DNA of 64,000 bases from positions 289,850,001 through 289,914,000 of the forward strand of contig OZ024743.1 in the NCBI GenBank assembly GCA_964016885.1, read 5' to 3'. The position numbers and the translations under genes were made by a program. Positions 2,882-39,400 of the stretch are shown here, one piece after another. The notes beneath the pieces were generated by a model. That model had not been told where the DNA came from. It did not search any database and worked only from the letters and a program-made list of their open reading frames with translations. Within the stretch, counting starts at the first letter, position 1. Every line of letters begins with the position of its first letter. Source of the DNA: Eledone cirrhosa. Taxonomy: Eukaryota.

Positions 2882-2917
2882 CTTTGAGGAGGCCATGTGG
2901 GTGAAACATTATGTAAG
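2882..2917 (+). ncRNA. Degenerate minimal hammerhead motif in a Penelope-type 3'-end remnant
   Basis: ct-TTGAGGA-ggcc atgt gggt-GAAA-cattatg-TA-ag; C3 is mutated; TA run starts about 60 nt downstream. Confidence 0.45.
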
Positions 2918-3094
2918 ATTTATATAAAGAACTTGTTTTAACGGCTAGTAAGACCTTTATTCATTCATTTGTTTATATATATATATTTATAAATAAATAT
3001 ACACGTGTGTGTATGATTGTGTATAGAAGATTATATTAATAAAAGAAATTCTAACATTGTCTGATTTACTCGTTTTATTTACAATCCTATAAAA

Positions 3095-3489
3095 CCATGT
3101 ACAGTATATGCATATATGTATTTGAAACGAAAGAATGGTATTTAACTAATGTAATGGTACGCGATGGCGCCCACCCACAGCCCCAGCGGACAGAATGGAG
3201 AAGCGTTTCCACGGAGGATGACAAGGGAGACGCGCTGGAAAAACAACTCCAACTCGTGCGGCTCACACCTACGGCTGGCCAGCTCAGCGCCTATGGTGGT
3301 GAGTAAGGAAGTAGCCCTGGGGCCGAGGACACCAGAAGTTACCACTGCCAGGGGAACGACCGCAAGCCTGTCGGACGGCGACCGGTATTTGAGGAGTTTG
3401 TCCCCCTCAGCCCGACGTGCAGCCGAACCTGGGTCAGTCGCAGACTGCACCAGGTTGCGGCTGCAGAAAGTGTCGGTGCAAGTGGGATC
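3095..3489 (-). mobile_element. 5'-truncated CRE-like non-LTR retrotransposon, restriction-like endonuclease C-terminus
   Basis: DPTCTDTF...GSAARRAEGDKLLKY...VPLAVVTSGVLGP...FFQRVSLVILRGNA matches the C-terminal REL pattern of CRE-clade elements; flanked by AAAA at 3091-3094 and 3490-3493. Confidence 0.8.
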
Positions 3490-3645
3490 AAAATGTATAA
3501 TGGTACTAGAATGAAATAGTATGGTAGAATATTAAATATTTAGTGTTAATTGAACAAGTACTGTCATGCTTTCGCAATCGTCAGGTTCATATTCTGTGGT
3601 GACAGTCAAGTGAAAATTGCAAACTTGACTGTCATCACAGAATGT

Positions 3646-3686
3646 GAACCTGAAGATTGCGAGCGAAAGCATGAAAGTACTTGTTC
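3646..3686 (+). ncRNA. Minimal type-I hammerhead ribozyme (inverted copy at 3552-3588, minus)
   Basis: gaac-CTGAAGA-ttgc..gcat-GAAA-gtac-TT-gttc; stem I gaac/gttc, palindromic stem III. Confidence 0.75.
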
Positions 3687-34215: not shown

Positions 34216-36554
34216 TAGGGATACATGATATGAAGATTTAAAAACACTTGTGAATAGTGAAGTTTTAAATCAACATATGAAAAATAATTTAAGATTGATG
34301 TATGAGATTGGGAAACAGTGAGGGGGGGGGGGGTGGACAATGTAAGGAAGAGGAGGAGATGAGAGTAAAGAATGGTGGGGGAGGAGTATAAGTTACACAA
34401 TAATCAAAGCAATGTTCAAATCATTTTATTGCTGACAATCGTTTCTTCCAAACTATCGTTTGTGATCATCGGAACATTAACAATGTCGCATCCATTCCAC
34501 TCTGTAAATACGAAACTGTTGTTGACAACATTAATATCCATGTACCTATATGATTGTTCAGTTGAATAGGAGGTTAATTCAGTTGAATAGGAGGTTTATA
34601 GTTGTATATAGTGTATACATAACTATAAATATATAATAGAAGAAATTGATGAAAGAGAAGCAAGCCGTTAAAATATATTTATAAGAAGTGCTTACACATT
34701 TTACCCCCAAGAAGCGCTCTTCCGAGGTACACAAGGAAATAAAGGATTTAATAAAGAACCCTGTGTGGGTATTTTAACATCGAAATTCATATCTCGGTGT
34801 TACAAAGTTAAATGTTTATGTTTGTGAACACAGGGAAGTAATGCCGGTGTTATTTAGATTTATCTGCTAAATATAAATATATATATATACAGAGAGAGAG
34901 AGAGAGAGATTGACTACGAAGAATTGAAACTAAGTGTCGGTCTCGGTGGGTTTTGAGTAGAGGCAGCCGGACTATGTCTCGCAAAGATCGAATCCAACGC
35001 AATAATCAATCTGCCATTTTGCGGTCTATACCACTACAATCATTTTGTTATCAATCTAGTTATATGTATAACATTTATTCTGTAGCACATGTCTTAATCC
35101 CACTATTTTGTTTTACCAGTTTCATTATTGCATTAATCGCTTTCTCATATCAAATTTTCAAATCATAATGTTGCATTACCCCTGATTTTGCTGGGCATGT
35201 CGATACACAGTCTTGAGGCCTTTTGTGGAGGGGGAGTGGAAGTTTACCTTAAATCGTATTCCCTTCCGATTGCTTGCTTGCAACATAATGAAACATGCTG
35301 ATTTTACCACAGAAAGACGCATTATTTCTACAACCCAATAAAGCAACACACGTATTTGCAATGAGAACCCAAATAGCTGGAATAATTAAGACGATACAAT
35401 TCTGCTAATTCAACGCTCTGGACATGTATTTCATTTTAGCAACGAGTAAGGGCATACATTCACCTCGCTGGGATTTGAAAAGAGAGTGCAGAGATTCGCA
35501 ACAAATATTAAAAAGCATTTGGTCCTATGCTTTAACAATTTTGCCATTCACCGCCATATTCTTTTAGTTGTTCATACCATTATTATATGTGGTATACAAT
35601 TTTTAGACCCCAGCATGCAAATATATTTCTTTACATTTATACAAAACACTGTTGTTCATTGAGAAATAAAATTCTGTTATTGACACATGCCGTAGCTTAG
35701 TACATATATTGAAGTTTCGTTTGAAAAAATTACAAAGACGCATACAAAATAATCAGGTACGTCGATACAAAAAAGTTTTAGGCGATAGATGGTTAAATGT
35801 ATAGAAATAACTTCATCTACATTGGAATTTTGAATTCGTTAAAATGAAAAGTAATAATATAAAAGAAAACTGTTCTCAATAAACTCGGTTTTATCTATTA
35901 TACATAGAAATGTCTAATTCTGAATGTACAGGATTGCATGACACGGCACATTAATGGTGAATTATTGCTTTTCATTGAGTGGGAAGAGTAATGCCCATTG
36001 TCACGAGAGCCAAGACTGTTGGGTGAGGTGGGTGGAAGCTGTCTACAAATTGGTGTGTTGTTGCGGATATGTGGGATGAACAAGAAATCAGTATATTCTC
36101 CCAAACCCCAGGTAGTGGGTTTAAACTCGATAAGGATTAAAATCTACGATATAAGTAGACCACAGCAGAGTTTTAACTAAGAACACAAACATTTGGAACA
36201 GTTAAAGATGCGATAACACATCCGTAAATCCACGTTTTTAATATTGGCTATTGAAAAAGACGAAAGAGCACAGTTGACTTTGGCATGATGTGAACTCAGA
36301 CCTAGACACAGGAAAAACTCATTGAATCTAGTATACAGCACTGACGATCTGTCTCAGTAAGGGCATCTGAAGATGTATGAAGGAATGAAACCTGGAAAAA
36401 TGAAGTAATATAACTATATAATTCAATACACTTATTCTAATATACTACCGATTATGTTATTCAAATACACTCGCAGGAGGTAATATTTAAATAGAAAACG
36501 CAACTAATTCGATGTATAAATTCAGTCTTCTGAGACGGAAATTCATTGTAATTA

Positions 36555-36700
36555 ACACACACACACACACACACACACACACACACACACACACACACAC
36601 ACACACACACACACACACACACACACACACACACACACACACACACACACACACACACACACATATATATATATATATATATATATATATATATATATAT
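36555..36700. repeat. (CA)n(TA)n microsatellite
   Basis: Read directly. Confidence 0.95.
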
Positions 36701-39227
36701 CACTAATACTGTTTAAGCTGTTTCTAATGCTCTTAATTAGCAAATGATATTACCTCATGTATTTTATATTTACTCAATATATGGCTTTGCATTTTACACT
36801 CGATAGACCGTTAATTAATAGGATAAATAGCTTTATACCGTACGCTAGTTAATAATTACATAATCTATGTGATTGTATTTCCTATTCTCGAAGAAAGCCG
36901 TCAAAAGAAATTAGTTTTTCACTGATACTTATGATGAATAGACAATAATTAAAGACGGTTTTGCATTATTGAGAATGTCGGATGCTGCACTAATAACATT
37001 GACTTCTAACATTGGCAGAAGACTACAAATGTTAGGAAGGGAACTGTTAACACAATTGATCAAATACTTAACTGATATATATTTACCTTATCTTGGAAGG
37101 ATGAAACAAACGTCAATTGCGGCAATATTTTAAGTACTGATGTATATGTGAACGCCACTCCATACCGCCGTGCGCTTTAACAGCGGGGTAACGTTGATCA
37201 AACTCACCGACGTAATGAAAATTATCAGCTCATTGTTATATAACGCTTAGAAATATGTATTACAGAATTCTATTATTCTCATTTACTGTTTCTTTTCTAA
37301 GGAAGAGAACTGAAATACCAATTTTTTAGGGGATCCCCGAAGGGAGAGAGGAATGTATCTTTAAATCGGATACAGTTTGAATAATTGTAACAGTTTACTC
37401 TCCTGGTGAATGAGTCCAGGTGTTCATGTTAAACTGAGACATGTTACCTGTAGTGTATATTGTTTACAATGATGGATACTTATATAATTTAATATACATA
37501 CACACATACGCAGGCATACACACAAACACCCACCCACACACTCTCATATATGTGTGTGTGGGTGTGGGTGTGTGTTACTCGAGAATATTCACATTTTAGT
37601 GTGAGTACTATTGGATCTTTCTATATTACACTATTATAATAAATGATAAAGAATAGCAGCAACTGGTGATCTAATTGTGCTTGAGATCTTTGTTGGCCAC
37701 ATTTTGCCAAAATTGCTGTGAGAATGCTTTTGTTGCTTATGTGTCACTAATATGAAATGATCATTATCTTTCTGTTGCATCTCATTTCGAATGTCACTAT
37801 TGAAAACTCAAAGTTCATCTACTATGTATTGTTAGATAGCATCTAATGTTTTATTATTACAATTTGGCATTATTAAAAAAAAAAACGTTTTCCCTATTCT
37901 TGTAGTATATTAGATGCTGACGTTTGCCAGTCGTTGCTGGATAACATCAGTTAGAAACTCATTGACCTACAGAGGCCATATATGTTTTCATACCGTATCT
38001 CTGAGATTTCACAGGGAAAGTGGTTAAGTTGGTGGTTAATTGTGATCCGTAGTATTCAATTAGGTCCGACCAAGCATATTTTGTGATTGATAACTTTTAT
38101 CAGAATTTTTACTTTAATATCGAATAGGTTCAGGGTTCCAGTGTTGTCGGAGATGTTCTATATTAAAGAATGTGTTGGGAGCCATGTTGTTAAACATGCA
38201 ATGCACATTTATAACGTCATGTATTCGTCTCCTTGAGCATATAATTCACTTACGTAGGACAGAAATAGAAGTAGTTACAGCTGTTAAACATACTGCTTTC
38301 AGACGTCTCGCTCCTATGCCTGACATACTAATATGTGGTCCTGAAATATGTATAGTTAGGGAATGGCTACAACTAAAGTATATATTTTGTTTTAACAATG
38401 AGGTGACTCTTTGTCATGCCTCTTTCTCAATACCCCCACATTGGACATAGCTATGTAAAAACACGAGAATTCTTGATTGCTATCGCTTTTATTATATCTT
38501 GTGTGAAACTCCAGGAATGAAGAAATTACGAGGATGTTGGCTTTACATTGCTCCACGTGATTAATTTACCACAATCCCCGAAACGACCACGCGGTTTGTA
38601 CATTCAAAATTAGTCTATTTATTAATTTGGTTTAAAAAAAGGAAAACTTTCTAACCCATTGAATTTTGCATGACGAACGATGTCACATAAATGTTAATTT
38701 CTAAATGATTCTCACCGATAGTAACAAGCAACACGCTGAATTGACCAAAAACAATGTATATTGCCAAAGGATTTCCCCACTATATGCATTTATGAACACA
38801 TGTAATTACAGACACTCACACACCCTTACACGCACAAATACTCACACGCATAGAAAGTTTCATATCTAGGTAAACCTGAATGATTTTTGTCGAGTTGACT
38901 TTTCCCAAATTTGGTTTTCCTCTTTCAGGGTATCCAGAAATCATTTGTCACTAATAGCACTACCATTCATAAGCTGTACTGGATTATGTAGTTAACTGTA
39001 TTACATCTCTGCATACCATATATATGACCTGACAAATACCTATATATGCACATACACGCATACGCGCAAATATAATCATGCATACACACTTATTATTCCT
39101 GTACACGTCTATATTTTTGTATTTATTTATGTATAATCATCCATATCTATGTATCACTCTCTCTCTCTCTCTCTCTCTCTGTATATATATATATATATAT
39201 ATATATATATATATATATATATATATA

Positions 39228-39400
39228 TAACGAAGAAAATGTGGTAAGGAACCAGATGGACCATAACGCACCAAAGTACTCAATACTTAGGGTAGTAGAG
39301 TGGGTAATAGGAACGAGTAGGACCCCGACGGCTGAGCTCAGTCCAGAATTAGCCGTCGAAACGGCTTGAGCTCAGCGGTCGGGGTCCTACTCGTTCCTAT
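39228..39400. mobile_element. Inverted-repeat HHR remnant of the 33541 family, in (TA)n
   Basis: 39228-39340 is the reverse complement of about 33638-33751; internal arms 39307-39340 and 39367-39400. Confidence 0.78.

Follow-up and report, generated by a model that had tools for sequence, protein, structure and literature searches.

Hammerhead ribozymes of Hydra-clade Penelope-like elements and retrozymes at (TA)n tracts in Eledone cirrhosa, and a pair of hairpins that likely sets the start of reverse transcription

Introduction

Penelope-like elements (PLEs) of the Hydra clade are defined, in the text of Craig et al. (2021, PMC8557442), by an RWK motif, the change of DKG to DKT, a CxCX5C linker, the motifs CxxC and CxH and the absence of CCHH, and nearly all of them target (TA)n and carry hammerhead ribozymes; the same text gives PLEs a 'tail' of 30-40 nt, often at one end only. 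In PAc, a Poseidon element of Anolis, the reverse transcriptase (RT) starts at two internal stem-loop sites and the tail is the stretch between them, according to the text of Frangieh et al. (2024, PMC11167929). The presence of hammerheads in TA-targeting Hydra PLEs is already known, as are tails and retrozymes. The subject of the present analysis is a stretch of 64,000 nt of the Eledone cirrhosa genome (GCA_964016885.1, contig OZ024743.1, positions 289,850,001 to 289,914,000; hereafter the window), located on a 379-Mb contig of a 3.0-Gb genome, in which an original prediction had placed a dense library of hammerhead ribozymes next to a Penelope-like RT. The new finding is that insertions stop at either of two fixed positions behind the ribozyme, with a bulged hairpin starting 2-6 nt beyond each. 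We consider it probable that the hammerhead motifs of the window are the 3' ends of Hydra PLE families and of retrozymes inserted at (TA)n, and that the two hairpins set the start of reverse transcription.

Results

The scan was restricted to type-I hammerheads and read both strands, requiring the core, a helix I of at least 4 bp and helices II and III. Known variant cores were accepted, a palindromic helix III earned a score bonus, and the scanner, with cut-offs of at least 11 (main) and at least 10 (relaxed), was tuned after inspection of the window. Positions 1-40,000 contain 17 motifs at the main and 18 at the relaxed cut-off, with the conserved core and helices I-III in type-I order, against a mean of 0.03 and a maximum of 1 in 100 blockwise dinucleotide shuffles, while 40,001-64,000 contain none on either strand; the motifs are thus genuine, and their predicted absence beyond 40 kb holds. 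Twelve of the 17 sites originally proposed pass, eleven at the main cut-off and 23839, with a U3-A8 core, at 10.3. Four of the remaining five are damaged or variant members of real families: both core and helix I have decayed at 3896, whereas its relative at locus L283 has a full core and a 6-bp helix I; helix I of 14915 is disrupted in both window arms and complete in L067; the core of 16434 has one additional base in three copies; and 21425 combines a U3-A8 core with a helix I of 3 bp. Site 4941 was rejected, as it consists of the 3' half alone; neither the window nor L053 or L041 has a 5' core upstream of it. Counted by eye and with partial copies included, about 30 motifs in 14-15 families result, in line with the earlier tally of about 30 in about 15, and stem III is palindromic in 90 of 107 hits overall, palindromes being favoured by the score bonus. 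An Rfam scan of the window gave no hammerhead among the best 150 of 204 matches, with chance microRNA-like matches on TA repeats. Families are named below by a predicted site or by their unit length.

Such motifs are spread far beyond the window. Sixty evenly spaced 10-kb stretches from ten large contigs (600 kb, small contigs left out) hold 63 motifs, against 0-1 in each of five shuffles. This density of 1.05 per 10 kb corresponds to approximately 3.1 x 10^5 motifs per genome (bootstrap 2.1-4.2 x 10^5), so that the genome likely holds about 300,000; a narrow core pattern without stem requirement matches 178,577 times genome-wide against 15,132 for the reversed pattern. The predicted confinement to a (TA)n field is consequently true within the window only, since its 100-kb flanks add 15 and 12 motifs to those of the sample. 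Insertion into (TA)n, in turn, was borne out: a TA tract lies within 200 nt downstream of 51/62 motifs and upstream of 13/62 (background 13.6%) and, when the 468-nt family with its internal TA run is excluded, of 46/55 and 11/55, respectively, while nine sampled stretches without a TA tract have no motif at all. Together these data support a reading of the motifs as type-I hammerheads of TA-inserting PLEs and retrozymes spread through the whole genome. The window also contains very long compound TA arrays (517-2831, 2.3 kb; 22573-23526, 1 kb), which boost its local tract count.

The best preserved of these elements is a PLE of the 6669 family, hereafter the active family. Its insertion at 6626-12952 is a partial tandem with a pseudo-long terminal repeat (pseudo-LTR), adjoined by (TA)n at both ends, in which 6632-8753 and 10831-12952 are 99.9% identical (masked self-BLAST; also found as repeat D16). 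The open reading frame (ORF) is intact, as predicted, and the 819-aa product carries the RT motif YRDD at 354 and a GIY-YIG-like motif at 697, together with RWR at 38, DKT at 123 (DKG is absent), CxCX5C at 678, CxxC at 776 and CxH at 804, and no CCHH (translation judged by eye); among its homologs RW[KR] occurs in 108/120 and DK[TS] in 118/120. By this motif set the ORF is assigned to a Hydra-clade PLE, and the C-terminal endonuclease, type-I hammerhead, (TA)n insertion, tandem and inverted copies and one-end tail are likewise those of the elements in the text of PMC8557442. Differences from that text are the unit of 4.2 kb with a long 3' untranslated region (UTR), described Hydra elements being mostly below 3 kb, and tails of about 65-165 nt. 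No Pfam family was matched by the window ORF, though its homologs P0050 and P0040 match RVT_1 (below cut-off) and GIY-YIG, and a PDB sequence search with an alignment as query gave no match. All 55 genome matches in the scored set are 99-100% identical and 53 lack a stop, which indicates a young family. Contigs of four sequencing runs, of unrecorded kind and without bearing on expression, cover 24-30 of 30 element bins.

The hammerhead of the pseudo-LTR has the type-I fold with a U4C core instead of the canonical one. U4C is fixed in the active family, with 4,078 exact matches genome-wide against 37 with U4, and ten U4 copies examined are 71-97% like the PLE unit. The variant reduces activity in vitro with viroid infectivity still possible, as stated in the text of PMC3088659. 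It occurs in none of 69 hits from metagenomic Hydra loci, and File S2 of PMC8557442 lists no Hydra hammerhead with it, though the work of Lunse et al. on PLE hammerhead variants may already describe U4C.

Coding remains of Hydra elements were sought up to 2.5 kb upstream of the motifs with a profile made of the ORF and 60 homologs. They precede 3/4 motifs of the active family, 5/24 of the 14671/28624 family, 1/5 of 21156 and 1/8 of 23586 (an endonuclease in the last case), and none of those of the 468-nt (0/20), 553-nt (0/3) and 3646 (0/4) families. In addition, locus L180 has an intact 732-aa Hydra ORF, 40% identical and matching no Pfam family, upstream of a 14671-type motif. Several 'families' are therefore truncated 3' ends of distinct Hydra elements, and as judged from these remains at least four families of the window are 5'-truncated ends of different Hydra PLEs. 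The 468- and 553-nt families, whose units are a few hundred nt long and carry a single type-I hammerhead and only short, mostly repeat-derived ORFs, are by their sequence ORF-less tandem retrozymes, like the metazoan non-LTR retrozymes in the text of Cervera and de la Pena (2020, PMC7229834) and those in the text of bioRxiv 10.64898/2026.07.22.740005.

Where these copies end was surveyed in 30 loci of the active family with a 3' region, from the best 40 scored of 566 candidates. In eleven of them the TA begins about 45 nt behind the predicted cut and in 15 at a distance of about 208 nt, while the other four continue in tandem; all 26 terminal ends meet a TA repeat, two of them imperfectly. For the 14671 family the two distances are about 48 and 139 nt, and copies of the 23586 and 21156 families fall into the same two classes. 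Among inverted insertions, 26 of 28 classifiable pairs from five families consist of a short and a tailed arm (six more had an unclassifiable arm, and coordinates served to pick the seven pairs of the active family). This two-ended pattern is the one-sided tail of PLEs. In seven of the eleven short ends (L093, L095, L098, L101, L115, L116, L118) the last 9 nt before the TA are repeated in one to about four extra copies; the template of this segment is flanked by a 4-nt repeat, which would permit a telomerase-like realignment and re-copying, and a similar reiteration occurs in L056 and L071.

In copies that continue past an end point, the end point is followed by a hairpin with a 4-bp lower stem, mostly GCUC/GAGC, a 2-nt 3' bulge (UU, UC or UA) and a variable upper helix. 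When terminal copies are compared with continuing ones, the sequence that they share stops 2-6 nt short of the hairpin in 13/19 comparisons, four of them metagenomic, and 2-8 nt of alternating T/A form the junction. Tailed insertions lack hairpin 2, and short insertions lack hairpin 1. An independent set of 78 metagenomic loci with Hydra-like proteins (31-42% identity) has a hammerhead on the coding strand in 58, and of the 29 hammerhead types 27 have hairpin 1 at 25-75 nt behind the cut. Comparison with shuffled sequences, which gave a mean of 0.23, found it in 26 of 27 types, with representatives chosen as hairpin carriers where any copy had one. Under a relaxed rule, hairpin 1 was found in all 23 and hairpin 2 in 21 of the 23 metagenomic copies located upstream of the ORF, some of them near-duplicates, against about 0.9 in shuffles. 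Upper helices covary: in 51 de-duplicated hairpins, located by their end motifs alone, with pairs counted from both ends and kinship among loci uncorrected, pairs 1 to 3 are Watson-Crick in 49/51, 41/51 and 31/43 cases, against permuted means of 25.0, 15.8 and 11.8.

The hairpin was also searched for in extended copies of the window families, by a relaxed search without its own shuffle control, and was found in 4/4 copies of the active family, 13/17 of 14671, 12/15 of 14915, 2/2 of 16434, 3/3 of 21156, 8/8 of 23586, 19/21 of 26916, 1/1 of 28624 and 1/1 of 16039. Most families have the hairpin, as a rule in two copies. The 26916 family is the 553-nt retrozyme, where a compensatory change in the lower stem is also seen; the tail pattern of PLEs and the Hydra hairpins set it apart from described retrozymes, and the hairpins are a candidate recognition signal for its driver. 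Such twin hairpins are undescribed in the literature searched: the text and supplement text of PMC8557442 contain no match to hairpin or stem-loop, and neither PMC11167929 nor its three text supplements describe them, figures, Repbase reports and older Arkhipova papers lying outside this search.

Discussion

According to the mechanism proposed here, the RT-endonuclease would bind the RNA hairpins, nick (TA)n on both strands and prime complementary DNA (cDNA) at the TA overlap of 2-8 nt directly upstream of each hairpin. A start at hairpin 1 would give a short end and one at hairpin 2 a tail, equal to the stretch between the starts, while starts at the two hairpins on opposite target strands would give short and tailed arms. 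In this way the hairpin would likely position the RT and account for the one-sided tail of PLEs. Early termination would leave short ribozyme-bearing ends, which may explain their high number. As the starts lie 3' of the predicted cut and the ribozyme is whole in the copies, the template would be an uncleaved multimer or a re-ligated circle. Acting on multimeric transcripts, the ribozymes are likely slow cutters that work as dimers, the latter suggested by the palindromic helix III; dimer cleavage of PLE hammerhead motifs is weak in the text of PMC4209133. A weakened U4C core appears to be tolerated in the youngest family seen, and families without the hairpin may use another PLE clade.

The closest parallel is PAc, which has two start sites 3' of the hammerhead, as proposed here, a tail corresponding to the stretch between them and AT-rich targets. 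The text of PMC11167929 further reports that hammerhead cleavage is dispensable in vitro, that the RNA 3' of the starts is required and that the enzyme, a predicted dimer, cuts and extends both strands; by analogy, the both-strand extension, the need for 3' RNA and the predicted dimer would fit the mechanism above. In PAc, however, the two sites are adjacent and share one AC-rich stem-loop inside the ORF, whereas 60-165 nt of 5' UTR separate the putative sites in E. cirrhosa, each of which precedes a hairpin of its own and has a short TA overlap.

A number of observations weigh against hairpin-directed starts, or limit their reach. The PAc start site, by the same text, has no homology to its target, unlike the TA overlap proposed here. 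The motif was defined on this genome's own sequences, which is why the metagenomic loci served as the test set, and under the strict rule of two upper pairs only 8/18 start sites of this genome pass (background 4-5%), four more having a one-pair upper helix or an unpaired outer base when judged by eye; strict hairpin 2 occurs in just 8 of the 29 metagenomic types, and upper pair 4 stays at permutation level. Six of the 19 end-point comparisons failed, broke on polymorphisms or were uninformative, and the thresholds between short and long ends were set per family after the data had been seen. A convincing hairpin is lacking at 3646 (1/6 copies), 15294 (0/1), 21425 (1/5), 23839 (2/9) and 25215 (1/63), so that with the 3646, 21425, 23839 and 468-nt families not all families fit. 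Isolated hammerheads fold at shuffle level (z 0.03 to -1.6, single-strand folding), and the best monomer fold of the U4C motif is not the active one.

The main rival reading accepts the same elements and lets the hairpins act in DNA, as a cruciform or single-stranded cDNA for resolution by the endonuclease, or as a promoter, rather than as start signals in RNA. The endonuclease of D. virilis Penelope required the tail to recognise plasmid DNA (text of PMC11167929), the tail is attributed to endonuclease-mediated resolution in the text of Craig et al. (PMC8557442), and the varying upper pairs are nearly all Watson-Crick with few G-U. We nevertheless regard it as unlikely: a hairpin absent from the end that it adjoins is not in the cDNA product and lies on the template directly 3' of the start, which is the situation of hairpin 2 in tailed and of hairpin 1 in short insertions, and the dependence of PAc on RNA 3' of its starts points the same way.

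Two further readings concern the motifs rather than the hairpins. The original prediction took the region for a landing pad hit by many autonomous and non-autonomous elements with shared GIY-YIG/RT machinery; as considered here, the pad would be special to this locus, and its families, about 15 and for the most part non-autonomous, would use the RT next to them. The window is indeed about four times denser than the genome sample (4.25 against 1.05 motifs per 10 kb, bootstrap P=0.0006), insertion of PLEs near earlier copies is reported in a review (PMC6765202), and the 553-nt retrozyme shares the Hydra hairpins. Per TA tract, however, the window matches the genome average (17/137 against 63/577, Fisher P=0.65), single sampled 10-kb stretches elsewhere reach 5-6 motifs and the same families occur on many chromosomes; a shared RT is contradicted for at least two other families, 14671 and 21156, which own Hydra coding sequence. 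A special pad is accordingly not supported, and we hold this explanation as a whole to be quite improbable. Least probable of all, to the point of deserving hardly any weight, is that a few old insertions were multiplied at the DNA level, by duplication or satellite expansion, to give the motifs, the ribozymes being inert relics. Arrays of at least 10 kb of the 468-nt family (L181, L182) speak for it, as do about a dozen damaged motifs in the window and the finding, in the text of bioRxiv 10.64898/2026.07.22.740005, that 8/9 Xenopus retrozyme dimers remained uncleaved in vitro. Yet copies differ in their flanks, with fixed 3' ends, variable 5' truncation and inversions, and the helices are preserved across families of differing sequence; DNA-level expansion may hold for the long arrays.

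Returning to hairpin-directed starts, whether Hydra PLEs as a whole share a clade-wide pair of RNA hairpins, with a dimeric RT-endonuclease starting cDNA at two fixed sites, one per nicked strand, is in our estimate an even question. If so, the pair would explain both the one-sided tail and the inverted repeats of PLEs, and the hairpin would be a signal copied by some retrozymes to hitch-hike. With a short covarying hairpin that keeps its distance to both putative start sites, and with (TA)n as a simple target for an ORF that is intact and was recently active, two questions become testable: the choice of template and start site by PLE RTs, the sister group of telomerase RTs, and the use of PLE enzymes by retrozymes, so far argued only from co-occurrence and sequence likeness. 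The hairpin rule also helps annotators to define the ends of Hydra PLEs. As to abundance, the estimate of 2-4 x 10^5 hammerheads for this 3-Gb genome compares with 126,247 in the axolotl, of 28 Gb in the text of bioRxiv 10.64898/2026.07.22.740005, though descriptors differ; the published counts consulted also give more than 6,000 for Acropora, about 9,000 for Xenopus tropicalis and 235 Rfam hits for the giant squid, so that this genome would, if the estimate is true, be the most hammerhead-rich among those compared.

Other features of the window

Table 1. Positions of the hammerhead-bearing elements and associated features (window coordinates).
Feature	Position	Strand	Remarks
Young Hydra-clade PLE insertion	6626..12952	-	5'-truncated 2.1-kb copy, then full 4,199-nt unit
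Type-I hammerhead, U4C core, palindromic helix III	6669..6715	-	predicted cut after 6673
Intact ORF, RT and C-terminal GIY-YIG-type endonuclease	8159..10618	-	819 aa, Hydra-clade motifs
Bulged hairpin 2, directly behind tailed end point, upstream of start codon	10639..10655	-	one-pair upper helix, fails strict two-pair rule
Bulged hairpin 1, directly behind short (untailed) end point	10788..10821	-	
Second U4C hammerhead copy, in pseudo-LTR	10868..10914	-	hammerhead scan
Another Hydra PLE family, truncated inverted insertion	18685..21254	+	endonuclease remnant 19328-19788
U4C hammerheads of the 18685-21254 insertion	21162(+), 18853(-)		tail hairpin at 18733-18753(-)
Third Hydra PLE family, truncated 3' end	14670..14774	+	core at 14678; intact 732-aa ORF in L180
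Subfamily related to 14678 type	28620..28731	+	core at 28630
Hairpin-bearing family, 3' end	23528..23693	+	core at 23592; second copy, core at 34209(-)
468-nt tandem retrozyme, inverted arm	24977..26626	.	cores 25252(-), 25720(-), 26289(+); no RT link; hairpin not found
553-nt tandem retrozyme, inverted arm	26741..27830	-	cores 26991, 27542; hairpins 26826-26849, ~27248-27272
553-nt retrozyme, second insertion	31619..32803	+	core 32161 passes; core 32714 with 3-bp helix I
Inverted pair, further family	3490..3802	+	core 3650(+) passes; minus arm 3584 mutated; hairpin not found
Decayed hammerhead (predicted site 3896)	3892..3960	-	
Inverted pair centred on helix I (predicted site 14915)	14873..15042	.	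hairpin in tail
Hammerhead, long helix II	15294..15380	-	core 15375; no second copy among loci compared
Hammerhead, weak helix II	16039..16116	-	core 16110; no second copy among loci compared
Hammerhead-like motif, extra core base	16434..16523	-	related copy 18189-18313(+) has hairpin
Inverted pair, U3-A8 core (predicted site 21425)	21353..21618	.	3-bp helix I; hairpin not convincingly found
Inverted insertion, U3-A8 core 23880(-)	23754..24336	.	related pieces 32813-33306; hairpin not convincingly found

Two of the families that escaped the scan have peculiarities of their own (Table 1). The extra base of 16434-16523 lies in the 5' core box and is shared by 18189-18313 and L029, while the more distant L026 has a U4C core without it. 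The four loci examined of the 14915 family (window 14873-14949, L067, L069, L087) all have their inversion centred within the 5' strand of helix I, so that at most one arm has a complete ribozyme; the family is frequent among the first 100 matches of the narrow core-pattern count and undercounted by the scanner.

A short palindromic element, flanked by (TA)n and with a one-sided extension, lies at 33544-33749 and 39230-39397 and also in L029, L049 and L069; no hammerhead core was found in it, and it probably represents the outermost part of another PLE-type family. Other palindromic inserts, likewise with no hammerhead core, lie at 24474-24742, whose tail recurs at 23409-23474, at 13700-13809 and at 4029-4224. 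Broken non-LTR RT fragments (4293-4607, 5314-6326 and 18499-18609; RVT_1 E=1e-5, below cut-off), which we take to be RTE-like, have ends adjoining TA tracts and lie beside the palindrome 4730-5271 that contains site 4941. The TA-poor half of the window holds a degraded transposase-like frame at 48704-49288 (HTH_32 E=1e-5, below cut-off), presumably mariner-like.

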